Positions 8,680 through 15,243 of a stretch of 64,000 bases of DNA are shown in pieces (position 1 is the stretch's first letter; each line of letters begins with the position of its first letter). Both the position numbers and the translations under genes were made by a program. This DNA is from Escherichia coli. Its GTDB lineage: Bacteria > Pseudomonadota > Gammaproteobacteria > Enterobacterales > Enterobacteriaceae. The DNA is taken from NCBI RefSeq assembly GCF_013315695.1, contig NZ_CP054353.1. One strand, given 5' to 3'. The notes beneath the pieces are model-generated. The model searched no databases and was not told where the DNA came from. It saw only the letters and a program-made list of their open reading frames with translations.

Positions 8680-11652
8680 TTACCAGTGCACTCCAATGGT
8701 GAGAAACGCGTTGTTGCGCTCTCCGTTACGTTGATTAATCGCCTTAAAGGTATGTTGATACTCGACGCCGAGACTGACTTTGTGCGGCCAGGCGTCGTAG
8801 TGCGTCTCGCCGGTCCAGATATTCCAGCGGACCCCGACTCCGCCAAGCTGCGCGCCCTGAGTGCCTTTATCACGATAGCCGTTGTCCTGAACGTGAGCGT
8901 AAGGCTCAATAGTCTGTCCGTTAGCCACCTTCTGATGCCAGCTGACGCGATAATCTGCCGTCCACGCCTGAATATCCTGGCGGACATATTGCGCCGCATC
9001 GAGGTACAGGTTTTGGGCAAACCAGCCTGAACCGTTCGGGTGCCATTCGTCGCTGTATTTGCCGCCATTAAAGAATGAGGCGCTGGCGCGCAGCATGGTA
9101 TCGGATGCGCCATTTTGGCCGTTCAGCGGCAACTGCTGTTCGACGGCGAGGAAAAAGATCTGATCGCGCAGCGGCTTCCAGCGCAGACCGGTGCCGGACA
9201 TCGGATTTTTCACCGGCATCATCACCCCGTTTTCACCGGTATCGGCAAATACACGGCTGTAAACCGAGAGCAGGTCGCCTTCCAGCAGCATATTGCGTCC
9301 GATGCGGTACTCGGCTTCCAGTTGCCCGTAGCTACGATAGCTTTTCCCTGGCGCTGCGCCGCCGACATTATTGTTAGCGGTACTCATTGCGCCGGAACGC
9401 AAGCCGATAGAAGAATCGAAACTGAACGTCCAGCGGCGACCGACCTCCTCATGCAGACGGCGGAAATTGAAGCGTTGCTGATTTTGCTCTGGGGTCAGTG
9501 GGGTTATCAGCGCCTGATTATCAATGTCATCAATCACCAGCCGGGCGTAGTGCTGCGTCGCAGGCATGTCATCCAGACGCTGGTTCACGTAGGCCAGTTG
9601 TCGGATAAGTGCCGGATCGTCCGGTAGCCCTTTATGCGCCTGTTCGAGCATTTTCCGCGACTGTGCGATATCACCGCTATCCCACAAGGCGTAACCGAGC
9701 GCTGCCTGGGTGTTGCTATTATTCGGTTCCAGTTCCAGCGCGGCGCGCAAATCACTCACCGCCGCCGGGACATTATGACGTTGGCGATAAATTGTCGCCC
9801 GCGCAACGTAAGCGTTGGCAGAAGGCGCAATATTGATTGAGCGCGTGAGATCGTTCAGTGCGAGTTCCGGCTGACCAGGAATGTAACGTTGCGCATGCAG
9901 CCACCTGTAGAGGGCATTGTTTCCCAGCCCACGTTGTTCTGCCTGCTGAAGCCAGCGATCGCGAGCCGCACCATTTCCTGCCGCCTGGGCGGTATTGGCA
10001 GCAGCAAGCAGATCCTCATTGCTCATGTCGTGAAGACTGATTTTCTGCCAGGCCGCCAGTGCGGTGGCGTAGTCCTCAACCTGATACGCCTGATAGGCTA
10101 CCGCACGATGTTGCCAGGCGTTCGGTTGTCGTTGTTCGGCCTGAAGCCATGCATACAACGCCACACCGGGTAGCGTGTCCCGATAACACTTTGCCAGACG
10201 GTTCCAGGCGGCGGCATCGTAGGAAGGCGACATATCGCCCAGCAAGCGAACTATTGCCGGGCAATTATCTGCAATACCCGGCAACTGACTTTGCCACTGA
10301 CGTTGCTCCGCCAGCGGTAAGGGTTTCGATAAAATCGCCACCTTCGCCGGCGTTGCCAGGTAAGGATGACTTTCCAGCAGAGACGCCAGTTGCGCCATTA
10401 ACGTCTGGCTGACACGCGCATCGCCCTGGAAAGGATAGCGTTGCAGCAATAAATCGGCAGCTTCGCGTGACTGCTCGTTCTGCATCAGTTGCCAGGTCAG
10501 TTGATCCAGGCGGGTAAGATTTGCCGGTTCTTGCTGATACAGCAATCGTGCCAGACGCAGAGCTTCAGCCTTGTTATGGGTCGCTACGCTAACGGTATAA
10601 CGCTCCTCAAGCATTTCATTGGCGGGGAGGGTGGCGAGCAGTTTTTGCGCTGCGTCGTACTGACCTTCTTTTAACAGCACCGGTAGCGTCGCGCCAACAA
10701 CATACTGGCGGTTATCGGCAAACTGTACCGTATAATTCGCCAACGCCTGAACGGGGTTGACGCTGTATTTAGATAACAGATAGAGCCAACTTTTCTCTTG
10801 TGCGTCCGTGGTAAACAGCGGCTTATTTTCAATGAGATAACGCTGGAGGCGTGCTTTTTCGCCACGATAAGCCAGCGCGGTCGCGTAAGTAATATATGAC
10901 TGCGGATCGGTGAAGATCCCCTGTGATTGCAGCGCCAGGATCCGATCGTCCAGCTGCCCGGCAAGAAGCACATCAAACCACTGGCGGCGTTCTGCCGCGC
11001 TTAATGTGTTCTGCTGGCGTGCTTCATTGTATAGCGTATCTGCCTGGGACCATTGTTTCAGGTAGATTGCGCGTTGCAGCAGATCGGTTCGCAGCGTTTT
11101 TCCTTCCGGCGATGCAGCAAACGTCGCATCGTTTAGTTGCGCTCTGGCGACAGGTAATTGTGCCAGCCGCAGGGCATTCTGCCCGACTTCACTGCGACAA
11201 CGCAGGGTCGGCGCAGCATCGCACGCTTTTTGCTGGGCAAGCAGTTCTTCAACAGTCGTAACGCTTTTCACTTCAACTGGAATAGCCGCCAGACTGCGCT
11301 CAAGCCGGTCATCTCCTGGGTGACGTTTCAGTTGATCCTCAAGCAACAGCCGCGCCCGGTCATCATGACCAAAATGGCGATAGGCTTCCGCAAGGTATAA
11401 AGTTAGTGGAATATTATCCGGCACCTGTTGGTGTATATATTCAAATTCGCGGATGGCGGTTGCTTCGTCGTTATTTTTCTGTGCCTTCAGCGCCTTGTCG
11501 AGACGGGGATAAATAACGAAATGGCGATAATCGCTCAGCCCCAGCTCTTCTGCGCTGGTGCCGATATTGTCTGCGAGTGCGCTGGTACTCAATAAAGACG
11601 TCAGCAGTAAACCAGACCATCCGATGACGCGATTAAGGTTATTCTCCTTCAT
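8680..11652 (-). CDS. nfrA: NfrA, outer-membrane TPR protein required for phage N4 adsorption
   Basis: ORF track begins at a TTG. The recognisable N-terminus MKENNLNRVIGWSGLLL... starts at the ATG at 11652 and gives 990 aa. The C-terminal region is beta-barrel-like. Confidence 0.9.
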   Translation of the reverse strand: MKENNLNRVIGWSGLLLTSLLSTSALADNIGTSAEELGLSDYRHFVIYPRLDKALKAQKNNDEATAIREFEYIHQQVPDNIPLTLYLAEAYRHFGHDDRARLLLEDQLKRHPGDDRLERSLAAIPVEVKSVTTVEELLAQQKACDAAPTLRCRSEVGQNALRLAQLPVARAQLNDATFAASPEGKTLRTDLLQRAIYLKQWSQADTLYNEARQQNTLSAAERRQWFDVLLAGQLDDRILALQSQGIFTDPQSYITYATALAYRGEKARLQRYLIENKPLFTTDAQEKSWLYLLSKYSVNPVQALANYTVQFADNRQYVVGATLPVLLKEGQYDAAQKLLATLPANEMLEERYTVSVATHNKAEALRLARLLYQQEPANLTRLDQLTWQLMQNEQSREAADLLLQRYPFQGDARVSQTLMAQLASLLESHPYLATPAKVAILSKPLPLAEQRQWQSQLPGIADNCPAIVRLLGDMSPSYDAAAWNRLAKCYRDTLPGVALYAWLQAEQRQPNAWQHRAVAYQAYQVEDYATALAAWQKISLHDMSNEDLLAAANTAQAAGNGAARDRWLQQAEQRGLGNNALYRWLHAQRYIPGQPELALNDLTRSINIAPSANAYVARATIYRQRHNVPAAVSDLRAALELEPNNSNTQAALGYALWDSGDIAQSRKMLEQAHKGLPDDPALIRQLAYVNQRLDDMPATQHYARLVIDDIDNQALITPLTPEQNQQRFNFRRLHEEVGRRWTFSFDSSIGLRSGAMSTANNNVGGAAPGKSYRSYGQLEAEYRIGRNMLLEGDLLSVYSRVFADTGENGVMMPVKNPMSGTGLRWKPLRDQIFFLAVEQQLPLNGQNGASDTMLRASASFFNGGKYSDEWHPNGSGWFAQNLYLDAAQYVRQDIQAWTADYRVSWHQKVANGQTIEPYAHVQDNGYRDKGTQGAQLGGVGVRWNIWTGETHYDAWPHKVSLGVEYQHTFKAINQRNGERNNAFLTIGVHW

Positions 11653-13651
11653 TTTCGGACTCCAGTTGCGCAACCTGTTCTGTGTTTAAACCTGCTTTGA
11701 GTAATAGTGATTGCATCGAAACTTGTAATTCGCGTTGAATTGTCAGGACGCGATCCAACGTTTCCTGGCTGATAACGCCTTCGGTGACCAAAAACTTGCC
11801 GAGCGGCAGAGAACTGCGTTCATGGCGCAATAACAACACGTTAATTGCTGAACGATTAATATGACCGAGCGTGGTCAGTATTTCGGCGAACAGGAACTGA
11901 TGCGGCACATATTGCCGCCAGATTTCACCGGCCTGCTGTTCCGTGAGCCACTGATGCTGAACTGCATTGTACAACATTGCCCGCGGATCGTGACCGCGTC
12001 GGCGTGCATACCAGTGGCGTAATCCGGTGACAATTTGTCCCCGCAGAACAATGACGTAACGCACTTTGCGTCCGACTTTACGCGTCAGGGCCGCCAGCGA
12101 AACCGGGTCAATACCATCTTCACTGCCGACAATTAACTCATCATTGTCCAGACGCAGCGGCAGTACCGCATAATGCAGCGCCACGGAGGCCGGCATTTCG
12201 GCAATCAGCGAGGAAGGGATCTGCCAGGCATCGATGGATTCCCACGCCACTCGACGCGGATCGCCGTGTTGAAGTACCTGTTTTAACGCGCGCCAGTTGG
12301 CCATGAAGTTAATCAGGTTACCCCAGAAAAGACGCAGGACAGATAGCAGCCCCTGCGTCAGACCGTAGTAGCCAGTGACAAAAATCACCCGCTGCACGAT
12401 GCGGTTAACCATCAAACCAAAGTTTAGCCACAGCAGGGTCATTAACCATGCGCTGCCGCTGAAAATAGAAAGGAAATGCCAGGCATCGGGCCACAAACTT
12501 TCATACGCCAGTAACAGCAAAAGCTGGATCATCACCAGCATCGCGAGGAAGCTGACAAAGTTACTGATTGCCCCTTTGCGGTCGCGCCAGAGAAAGTAGT
12601 TCAGCGTCAGGCTGGAGGTCCATTTGTGGGTTTTAAAGCCCTGGAAAACAATGCCGATGATCCAGCGAGATTTTTGTCGAACCGCAGTCGAAAAGGTATC
12701 GGGGAAATATTCGCGCACGCAGATCATGTTTGACGTCCGTGCGTGCTGTAAAAATTTACGCTGCTCGCGTTCTTTGGCTTCGTCCACCACCGGAAAACGG
12801 ACAAAAATTTCCGTCATACCTTTTTCTTTCAGGCGGAAGCCAATATCGTAATCTTCAGTCAGACTCTGCACGTCGAAAGCAATACCGTCACCGTCAGCTA
12901 ACAGAGCGGTCACGGCGCGGCGGCTGAAACAGGTGCCGACGCCTGCGCTGGGCACTTGTCCGGCGAGGGCTTCACGCACCGGAACATCCTTGCCATGCAG
13001 TTCTGAAAACTCATCAATGTAAGTCATGCTGGTGAAGTGCGTCCATTCGCGTTCGAACGGATACACTGGGATCTGAATCAGATCTTTACGCTCGACCAGA
13101 TAGTTGAACAGACGCAATTCCATCGGTGAAATCACATCTTCGGCGTCATGCAGAATAAAACCAGCAAAAGCGAAATTGGCGCTACGTTCAAATTGGGTGA
13201 TGGCGTCCAGCACGTTGTTCAGACAGTCGGCTTTGCTGGTGGGGCCAGGACGCGCGCAGACTACCTTATGCACGTTCGGGAAGCGAGCGCACACTTCGTC
13301 AACATCACGCTGAGTATCGGGGTCGTTGGGGTAGGTGCCAACAAAGATATGATAGTTTTCGTAGTCGAGCGTGGTCGCCGCCAGCTCGGCCATATTGCCG
13401 ATGACGCCCGTTTCATTCCACGCCGGAACCATAATCGCTAACGGTTTTTCATCTGGTTTATACAGTTCGCGGTAACTCATTCGCGGGTAGCGGCGATAAA
13501 CACTCAACTTGCGTTTAATGCGGCGTACCCAGTAGACGACATCAATAAAAAAATCGTCCAGCCCGCTGATGAACATGATGACCGCTAACGTTATCGCGAT
13601 TACTTTTAAGCCGTAGAGCCAGGTAGCAAAAACATCAAGAAGCCAGTCCAC
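11639..13651 (-). CDS. nfrB: NfrB, inner-membrane family-2 glycosyltransferase with C-terminal MshEN-like c-di-GMP-binding region
   Basis: 670-aa ORF from a GTG start, with an in-frame stop 3 codons upstream. GT2 region (..AWNETGVIGNMAEL..DAED..) and C-terminal LPLGKFLVTEGVISQETLDRVLTIQ motif. Overlaps the nfrA start by 14 nt. Confidence 0.85.
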   Translation of the reverse strand: MDWLLDVFATWLYGLKVIAITLAVIMFISGLDDFFIDVVYWVRRIKRKLSVYRRYPRMSYRELYKPDEKPLAIMVPAWNETGVIGNMAELAATTLDYENYHIFVGTYPNDPDTQRDVDEVCARFPNVHKVVCARPGPTSKADCLNNVLDAITQFERSANFAFAGFILHDAEDVISPMELRLFNYLVERKDLIQIPVYPFEREWTHFTSMTYIDEFSELHGKDVPVREALAGQVPSAGVGTCFSRRAVTALLADGDGIAFDVQSLTEDYDIGFRLKEKGMTEIFVRFPVVDEAKEREQRKFLQHARTSNMICVREYFPDTFSTAVRQKSRWIIGIVFQGFKTHKWTSSLTLNYFLWRDRKGAISNFVSFLAMLVMIQLLLLLAYESLWPDAWHFLSIFSGSAWLMTLLWLNFGLMVNRIVQRVIFVTGYYGLTQGLLSVLRLFWGNLINFMANWRALKQVLQHGDPRRVAWESIDAWQIPSSLIAEMPASVALHYAVLPLRLDNDELIVGSEDGIDPVSLAALTRKVGRKVRYVIVLRGQIVTGLRHWYARRRGHDPRAMLYNAVQHQWLTEQQAGEIWRQYVPHQFLFAEILTTLGHINRSAINVLLLRHERSSLPLGKFLVTEGVISQETLDRVLTIQRELQVSMQSLLLKAGLNTEQVAQLESENEGE

Positions 13652-13800
13652 ACAAAAACCTTACATTAACGCTGGTTATGTTTAGGGTGGCGTATATTAA
13701 AGTTTTTTATGAATTGTGACAGCTTTTTATCATTAATAGGTATGACTATTGCGGCACGTTATTTTTACACTGGTTATAAAAGTTGCCGTTTGCTGAAGGA

Positions 13801-15243
13801 TTAAGCGGGTAATGTGATAACAAACCTTGTCCCCCGCGCATCCGACGTTACCGCAACCGTGCCTTTATGTGCGACAACAATCGATTTCACTATCGCCAGG
13901 CCAATGCCGCTACCTTCGCCTTTTCGCTGGCGGGAAGGATCAACGCGGTAGAAACGGTCAAACAATCGCGGTAAGTGTTCGGGCGCAATGGGCGTACCGG
14001 GGTTTTCGACGGAAACTTGCACCTGGTGATCGACCGTCTGGCAGCGCACAACAATTGCCTCTCCGGGTGGCGTATAACGCAGGGCGTTCGAAAGCAGGTT
14101 GCTTAACGCCCGACGCAACATCAGCGGATCGCCCGCAACCTGACACTCGTCACCAACAAACCGCAACTCCACGCCGCGATCTTCCGCTAACGCCTCGAAA
14201 AAATCGAACACTTTGCCGACTTCATCCGCCAGGTTGAGCATTTTCTTTTCGGGGATTAACTGGTTGTTATCGGCCTGGGCGAGAAACAACATATCGCTGA
14301 CCATTTTCGCCATTCGCGTCAGCTCTTCGAGATTAGAGTAGAGCACATCTTCCAGCTCCTTCTGGCTGCGCGACTGGCTGAGGGCGATTTCCGTTTGCGT
14401 TATGAGATTCGTAATTGGTGTACGAATTTCGTGGGCGATATCCGCTGAGAAATTGGACTGGCGGGTAAAGACATCCTCAATACGCTCGATCATATGGTTG
14501 AACGACAGCACCAGTTGTTCGAGTTCAATGGGCACGGTCTGTGGATCGAGGCGAACGTCGAGATCTTTCGAGGTGATATTCTGGATTTGACGGCTGACGC
14601 TGCGGATCGGCGCGTGACCTTTATGTACCGCCAACAGCACGATAAAGACGATCAGGATGCTGATTACCGATGCGGTCATTACAAGTTTATTCATCAAATC
14701 ATTTATGTAATGAAGATGAAAATCGATCGAAAGCGCAATGTAGAGCGTATAAATCGGTTTGCCGTCCACCAGTGGGCCAACCGGCAAGCTAATCATCCGC
14801 CAGTTGCTGTGTTCCATATGTCCGTGACCGTGGCCTGGCATCATCATTGTCGGGCCGGAAAGGAGATACACCTCGCCGCCCCGAGCGTCTTTATCGGGTA
14901 TGGCATCACGTGCAAACTCGCGGATATCGGGCGCGTCGGGGGAGTGATACACCGTTTTACCCAGGCTATCTGCCAGGGAGATCAACACATTGGAATAACC
15001 ACTGACAATATCTTCCAGCGTCATTAAGCGTCGGGCTTGCGTTTCGTCAGGGTGATTAAGTACCCGTTCAAGGGTGGCGCTAATCTCTTTTAAATCATTA
15101 ATATCCTGCTCGGCAAAATGCACTTTTACCGAGTGGATCATGATCCAGGCAAAGGCGAAAAACGCCGCGATGGTGGCCAGGCTAATAAAAAAGGTCAGGC
15201 GGGTTGCCAGCGAAAACGGGCGCTGAAACGGCTTACTGACCAT
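13801..15243 (-). CDS. cusS: Copper/silver sensor histidine kinase CusS
   Basis: N-terminus [16 protein letters not shown]..., HAMP and HisKA ([10 protein letters not shown]) then HATPase region. 480 aa from the internal ATG. Confidence 0.9.

Follow-up and report, generated by a model that had tools for sequence, protein, structure and literature searches.

A natural in-frame nfrB deletion allele of Escherichia coli lacks the MshEN_N c-di-GMP sensor unit and most of a conserved motif of the synthase core

NfrB is an inner-membrane glycosyltransferase that is activated by cyclic di-GMP (c-di-GMP) and makes the N4 glycan receptor (NGR); binding of c-di-GMP is needed for its activity in vivo (PMC8669469; PMC8669472). 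The nfrBA-ybcH operon and the signatures DxD, TED, and QxxRW by which NfrB belongs to glycosyltransferase family 2 (GT2) have been described (PMC8669469). The MshEN domain consists of a four-helix half, MshEN_N, which is built from two 24-residue motifs and a 5-residue linker (53 residues), and an alpha/beta half, MshEN_C; isolated MshEN_N suffices for c-di-GMP binding, and MshE depends critically on the glycines of the motifs (PMC5013675). Here we analyse the nfrB gene in a 64,000-nt stretch of Escherichia coli contig NZ_CP054353.1 (assembly GCF_013315695.1), hereafter the window. The encoded protein lacks 75 residues that comprise the c-di-GMP sensor unit and most of a conserved motif at the end of the synthase core.

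The nfrB gene of K-12 MG1655 (b0569) is 2238 nt long, corresponding to 745 codons, and K-12-type nfrB uses the same GTG start as the 670-codon window allele. Residues 1–470 of the two proteins are identical, residues 471–545 of the K-12 protein are absent from the window protein, and E577D is the sole difference in the last 200 residues. In the DNA alignment, the loss appears as a single 225-bp gap (reference gene nt 1400–1624), the placement of which slides by the length of the flanking repeat. Outside the gap, 29 nucleotide differences give one amino-acid change; therefore, nfrB was probably under purifying selection until the deletion. An earlier note on this DNA, made from the sequence alone, had described a 670-codon open reading frame (ORF) with a GTG start, given a K-12 length of about 745 residues, and suggested that, if this length is right, about 75 residues have been lost in-frame. 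The ORF list contains the same frame, on the minus strand, and the reference bears out both the stated length and the size of the loss. Full-length colinearity with the reference, the outcome that the note had set against its own suspicion, is not observed; the alignment has an internal 75-residue gap instead.

The window ORF is nfrB by locus, sequence, and hidden Markov model score. The NCBIfam NfrB equivalog model (NF008411) matches the window protein in two stretches with 1186.8 bits (cutoff 1170) and the reference in a single stretch with 1332.7 bits. The gene order cusS, nfrB, nfrA-ybcH is that of MG1655. The catalytic residues D169, T265-E266-D267, and Q326/R329/W330 are identical to those of K-12, and all three GT2 signatures are present.

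The deleted segment contains the c-di-GMP sensor unit. The N-domains of the solved MshE, PilF, and PilB structures align to residues 487–625 of K-12 NfrB as one contiguous MshEN domain. In accordance with the suspicion of the earlier note that the lost segment is related to MshEN c-di-GMP motifs, the NCBIfam c-di-GMP_motif model (NF053729) scores 54 bits on the deleted 75 residues alone, and its best stretch in the reference is 489–540. The AlphaFold2 (AF2) model of reference NfrB has four helices at 490–541. The deletion takes the whole four-helix MshEN_N, that is, the tandem motif pair directly after the membrane core (K-12 488–540), plus a low-confidence linker. Neither the tandem pair nor a complete MshEN domain, MshEN_N followed by MshEN_C, is found at the canonical position of the window protein. 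The Pfam MshEN model (PF05157) matches residues 542–628 of the reference and residues 470–553 of the window protein, and the surviving match corresponds to the MshEN_C half only.

Substitutions in this unit have been characterized. L490A, L490/537A, and G491L lower the plating of N4 (PMC8669469); G491L abolishes and G519S partly abolishes killing by N4, and L505, L509, and L518 were also targeted (PMC8669472). All residues tied experimentally to c-di-GMP-dependent N4 infection (L490, G491, G519, and L537) fall within the deleted segment, and so do L505, L509, and L518. We infer that c-di-GMP made by DgcJ probably does not activate the window NfrB.

The deletion also removes DKTTHDFP, leaving only W470 of the motif WDKTxHxFP (K-12 470–478) at the junction (window 12239–12244). 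This motif, which we define here from conservation and did not take from the literature, closes the synthase core and is missing from the window protein. A HMMER search with residues 1–485 of K-12 NfrB against 1.84 billion representative proteins gives 1647 matches; almost every one of the top alignments stops at residues 478–482, whatever sequence comes next in the matched protein. Across 149 aligned representatives, each of the residues W, D, K, T, H, and P is kept in about 80–90% or more of the sequences, and the conservation holds both in 32 sensor-less homologues that end no more than 30 residues past the motif (464–506 aa) and in 108 homologues with longer tails. Residues K472, T473, H475, and P478 are four of the 12 positions that are conserved at 90% or more in an alignment of 114 sequences. 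All 107 homologues that extend to the end of the core have the motif region, and the sequences that fail a strict regular expression for the motif are variants (WEKT and WVKT) or fragments. The NCBIfam models of shorter homologues (PRK14716-type models named 'glycosyl transferase family protein', profiles of 442–502 aa, called sensor-less from the profile length) each lose 10–13 bits on the window protein. Because the motif, which is nearly invariant in some 140 diverse homologues, is conserved in sensor-less ones too, we assign it to the synthase core and not to the sensor; its conservation suggests that it is important. We found no description of the motif in the NfrB literature consulted (PMC8669469; PMC8669472).

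The boundaries of the deletion coincide with a direct repeat. In K-12-type alleles, a perfect 13-bp direct repeat, GCGTGGCGTGGGA, flanks the deleted interval. No perfect direct repeat in K-12 nfrB is longer, and the two copies of this one lie 225 bp apart, compared with 647–1725 bp for the other perfect repeats of at least 10 nt. The undeleted sister allele of strain MS 21-1, 99.9% identical to the window allele, carries two perfect 11-bp copies of GTGGCGTGGGA, likewise 225 bp apart, of which the window allele retains one. Both copies encode Val-Ala-Trp, and the end of the synthase core (...RRVAW470) is fused directly to the alpha/beta half of MshEN (ESIDAW...). Replication slippage and illegitimate recombination classically leave one repeat copy and remove the interval exactly. 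Because both signs are seen here, the 225 bp were probably lost by one of these two routes between the direct repeats. We also considered that the deletion had rescued a nonsense mutation, and rejected this explanation: the stop codon of the MS 21-1 allele (Q326*), which is flagged as an 'internal stop' in its annotation, lies outside the deleted segment.

To survey the distribution of the deletion, 5,426 complete E. coli genomes were searched with junction probes. The window-type junction occurs in four of them, namely MSB1_4I (Australia, rectal swab) and AF3, AF10, and AF14 (UK, blood cultures). The same deletion in a K-12-type background occurs in one, USDA-ARS-USMARC-51408 (Kansas feedlot, bovine; NZ_CP104114.1). 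The remaining two single-nucleotide polymorphism (SNP) combinations of the 39-nt junction probe retrieve the same five genomes and none further, and since the probe requires an exact 28-nt word, alleles with more SNPs near the junction could escape it. Of the undeleted genomes, which number more than 5,000, not one is matched by any of the four junction probes. In a collection of 15 billion proteins, three exact protein variants are found on 330, 233, and 104 contigs; the total of at least 667 contigs is a minimum, in which contigs of one strain may be counted more than once. The carriers differ by at most 1–2 nt within nfrB, and the frame is open in all. The deletion allele is real and circulating, and an artefact is excluded.

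At all variable sites that were compared, among them two SNPs 1 and 6 nt away from the repeat, the bovine allele agrees with K-12-type nfrB. Because of this match, the deletion has at least two independent origins, and a single origin spread by recombination is rejected, since the bovine allele is K-12-type even so close to the repeat. The closest relatives of the window locus include SMS-3-5, IAI39, and CE10, which we take, as a lead only, to be members of phylogroup F. No description of a natural in-frame nfrB deletion was found in the literature searched; within that literature, this natural allele of a much-studied gene, from which one domain unit is precisely excised, is undescribed.

Downstream of the orphaned MshEN_C half, the window protein retains a second MshEN_N-like unit (unit 2, to be distinguished from the lost unit 1). 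With NF053729, the C-terminal 88 residues reach 48.2 bits when scanned by themselves (cutoff 38), and the score is 37.2 bits in the context of the 670-residue protein. AF2 models unit 2 as four helices that mirror those of unit 1. In 49 diverse homologues, G671, G693, L696, and Q714 are conserved in 94%, 98%, 96%, and 98%, respectively. The first half of the unit is degenerate in E. coli, with F663-A664 in place of the L-G of the family; the glycine of the first motif is Ala in E. coli and in one third of the homologues. The earlier note had reported only one MshEN motif near the C-terminus, where two are usual. That motif, LPLGKFLVTEGVISQETLDRVLTIQ, is present at residues 616–639 of the window protein, but it is no remnant of the canonical pair; it forms the second half of unit 2, whose first half is there in degenerate form. 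The region of unit 2 has been called a 'domain of unknown function' (PMC8669472), and we found no mention of a second MshEN_N-like unit in the NfrB literature consulted (PMC8669469; PMC8669472). One diverged homologue (P0144), which at 673 aa is nearly as long as the 670-aa window protein and is 38% identical to K-12 NfrB, is without most of unit 1 and keeps WDKTMHDFP, MshEN_C, and a complete unit 2. Therefore, an architecture without the first sensor can exist, though there with the core motif kept.

With a probability of roughly 65%, we read the window allele (del471-545) as a null or severe hypomorph that blocks synthesis of the N4-receptor glycan. This reading is favoured because the single substitution G491L abolishes killing by N4, and the allele loses the whole unit together with a near-invariant core motif. 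NfrB would no longer be switched on by c-di-GMP made by DgcJ, and the lost DKTTHDFP is probably an element that the core itself requires. No NGR polysaccharide would then be exported via NfrA, and the strain would be resistant to N4 and other NGR-dependent phages. The proposal of the earlier note that the deletion could alter N4 sensitivity or c-di-GMP control gains support to this extent, by extension from the published point mutants (PMC8669469; PMC8669472).

The wider population provides context. Strain MS 21-1 (NZ_CP146670.1; nfrB at L004:4250-6487) carries Q326*, a CAA-to-TAA change in the catalytic QxxRW. Two sister lineages, that of the window allele and that of MS 21-1, have thus damaged nfrB in different ways. 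In the bovine carrier, nfrA (L003:5613-8584) lacks 1 nt compared with the window nfrA and is frameshifted, which leaves this strain with a broken export component as well. At the nfrB/nfrA locus, IS1 or IS3 elements are present in several genomes, some genomes are without nfrB, and about 340 of 5,370 matching genomes have no single place that covers at least 80% of a 2.5-kb query. Lesions of the nfr pathway in E. coli have been noted in general terms (PMC8669472). This context fits, and suggests, recurrent and possibly selected inactivation of the pathway.

Several points weigh against loss of function. The conclusion is drawn from the sequence and from published mutants, and the argument for the importance of WDKTxHxFP is one of conservation. 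The catalytic residues are intact, and every carrier, in each of the three protein variants, has an open frame. A check for wider pathway decay in the window lineage found none: nfrA, ybcH, and dgcJ are intact, as expected if the system is still used; the same is equally expected for a recent lesion, and the carriers are nearly identical in nfrB. If the sensor is autoinhibitory, by analogy with the PilZ domain of BcsA (PMC8669472), its removal could activate the enzyme. The second conserved MshEN_N-like unit is kept. AF2 is confident on the deleted protein, with a predicted local distance difference test (pLDDT) score of 94.4 compared with 94.2 for the full-length protein, and the predicted template modelling (pTM) scores are 0.83 and 0.91, respectively. 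We rejected AF2 as a judge of viability: both pLDDT scores are about 94, AF2 is insensitive to such lesions, and it cannot separate the readings.

The point about autoinhibition leads to an alternative that we consider unlikely, in which NfrB is deregulated and still active. Autoinhibition would be relieved or control would pass to unit 2, the glycan would be made constitutively or at an altered c-di-GMP threshold, and the strain would be as sensitive to N4 as before or more so, with possible effects on motility. The intact catalytic residues and operon partners, the release of autoinhibition by c-di-GMP in BcsA (PMC8669472), and the persistence of the allele on at least 667 contigs are consistent with this possibility. 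So are the properties of unit 2, which scores above the cutoff on its own, is conserved about as well as unit 1, and has the same four-helix prediction, as well as the sufficiency of isolated MshEN_N for binding (PMC5013675) and the existence of P0144. However, DKTTHDFP is lost too, although it is conserved in sensor-less homologues and kept in P0144, and the effect of G491L alone argues that unit 2 is no substitute for unit 1 in the full-length protein. Moreover, unit 2 of E. coli deviates from the consensus at F663-A664, where glycines are critical in MshE, the motif model falls below its cutoff in the 670-residue protein (37.2 against 38), and pTM drops from 0.91 to 0.83. A related proposal, which is quite improbable, is that the NfrB family has two c-di-GMP-binding MshEN_N-type units, of which unit 2 is conserved in most members, and that the lone unit 2 of del471-545 binds c-di-GMP and perhaps DgcJ. 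The protein might then be either a rewired synthase with a changed threshold or a catalytically dead sink for c-di-GMP or DgcJ.

A doubtful alternative is that the allele is a partial hypomorph, in which weak, basal, c-di-GMP-independent activity would yield a certain amount of glycan and leave the strain partly phage-sensitive, and the nearly neutral allele would hitchhike in a successful clone. The sensor point mutants have graded N4 phenotypes (moderate for L490A and partial for G519S), the small divergence among carriers fits recent clonal spread without selection, and a deletion between such repeats arises easily by mutation. Yet the allele loses far more than G491L, which is sufficient to abolish killing, the loss of a near-invariant core motif points to a stronger defect, and the independent pathway lesions in the sister strain and the bovine carrier suggest recurrent, possibly selected loss. 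That there is no real deletion, owing to an assembly or sequencing artefact, another start codon, or a wrong reference length, has a negligible probability. The 745 codons of b0569, the shared GTG start, and the internal position of the gap refute it, and an artefact of assembly is refuted because five complete genomes, assembled independently and originating in three countries, share the identical junction with hundreds of contigs. The reading that we prefer is still that of a null or severe hypomorph.

The coordinates of the features are listed in Table 1. The sequence that precedes and includes the start codon of nfrB is TAA GGT TTT TGT GTG. In agreement with the earlier note, an in-frame stop closes the frame so that it cannot be extended; the stop is the fourth codon 5' of the GTG, with three sense codons between, and the Shine-Dalgarno-like AAGG overlaps it. 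At its 3' end, nfrB is overlapped by nfrA over 14 nt, as in K-12. The ybcH product (WP_001224581.1) is annotated both in the carriers and in the sister strain without the deletion. E. coli MSB1_4I (NZ_LR898874.1) matches the 2.5 kb that contain nfrB and its flanks (window 11400–13900) with 100% identity, and its dgcJ is annotated as intact.

Table 1 Features of the nfr locus in the window.
Feature	Coordinates	Strand	Basis or remark
nfrB deletion allele	11639..13651	-	670 codons + stop, without K-12 residues 471-545; ORF list, BLASTP and DNA alignment
Translation start region	13649..13663	-	GTG 13649-13651, AAGG Shine-Dalgarno-like 13659-13662, in-frame TAA 13661-13663
GT2 catalytic domain, residues 70-382	12506..13444	-	Pfam PF13632 (1.8e-40), PF13641 (2.7e-35)
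Deletion junction, one retained repeat copy GTGGCGTGGGA	12240..12250	-	V-A-W470 joined to E471 (K-12 E546); alignment of 8 alleles
MshEN_C-like alpha/beta half, window residues 470-553, K-12 545-628	11993..12244	-	Pfam PF05157, 52.4 bits
Second MshEN_N-like four-helix unit, window residues 586-639, K-12 661-714	11735..11896	-	NF053729, AF2, conservation
nfrA, outer-membrane export component, intact, 990 aa	8680..11652	-	translation check and annotation in identical genome
ybcH, third operon gene, intact, 296 aa	7789..8679	-	translation check; WP_001224581.1

The annotation of the allele is uninformative. The counterpart in MSB1_4I (WP_021563101.1, 100% identical) is annotated only as 'glycosyl transferase family protein', a generic name given though the allele lies just above the NfrB equivalog cutoff in our scan. 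Many records of the Prokaryotic Genome Annotation Pipeline label nfrB as 'nrfB' or 'NrfB', and newer records use nfrB. The name nrfB properly belongs to a nitrite-reductase cytochrome gene, and its use for nfrB is a naming error. In MSB1_4I, the trp-to-yea region (2.30–2.95 Mb) is oriented as in K-12 and the cus-nfr locus (3.76 Mb) is in the opposite orientation; therefore, there is either a large chromosomal inversion relative to K-12 or a difference in assembly orientation. IS1, IS5, and prophage sequences lie near the trp region of this genome.

The NfrB glycan is the primary receptor for N4 and several other coliphages. A circulating clinical lineage, represented by bloodstream isolates in the UK and carriage in Australia, is thus probably intrinsically refractory to phages that use this glycan, which is relevant to the prediction of host range and the choice of therapeutic phages from genome data. 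The generic RefSeq name hides the lesion, and receptor screens based on gene presence would score carriers as receptor-positive. The recurrence of the deletion at the longest and closest direct repeat in nfrB reveals a mutational hotspot for receptor loss. The allele and the family comparison also draw attention to two features of NfrB, the near-invariant core motif and the second MshEN_N-like unit. If the lone unit 2 binds c-di-GMP, del471-545 would be a natural separation-of-function mutant for the gating of a polysaccharide synthase by MshEN. The allele is an ordinary strain-level variant of a receptor gene, and the known picture of the Nfr system is unchanged.

Compared with K-12 NfrB, the window allele shares the locus, the operon, the 14-nt nfrB/nfrA overlap, the GTG start, and the catalytic residues; it differs in lacking DKTTHDFP, the linker, and the MshEN_N unit, and in its generic RefSeq name. 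To our knowledge, there is no solved NfrB structure. The best matches of the modelled protein in a Foldseek search are BcsA (PDB 4P00 and 5EJ1; E 4e-12), hyaluronan synthase, and chitin synthase. BcsA is likewise a membrane synthase with a C-terminal c-di-GMP receptor, and autoinhibition of its unliganded state has been proposed (PMC8669472). However, its receptor is PilZ, whereas that of NfrB is MshEN, and the sequence identity is only 13–14%.

The engineered sensor mutants (G491L, G519S, L490A, and L490/537A), in which N4 infection is reduced or abolished at unchanged protein levels (PMC8669469; PMC8669472), are hit in the same c-di-GMP-binding unit, and their phenotypes are the best available predictor for the window allele. 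They keep the domain, with any inhibitory contacts, and the core motif, whereas in the natural allele both the unit and DKTTHDFP are cut out. Overexpression of dgcJ rescued G491L (PMC8669472); a corresponding rescue of del471-545 is unlikely unless unit 2 binds c-di-GMP. The sensor-less synthases of the NfrB family (about 464–506 aa) share the GT2 core and the transmembrane region and, like the window protein, have no MshEN_N after the core. In contrast to the window protein, which has lost the motif and keeps an orphaned MshEN_C half and unit 2, they all end with WDKTxHxFP. Other natural lesions of nfrB and nfrA, namely the IS1 and IS3 insertions, Q326*, and the frameshifted nfrA, hit the same pathway recurrently. 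Unlike them, the window deletion is in-frame and domain-precise and recurs at a defined repeat hotspot, and a stable shortened protein is plausible.

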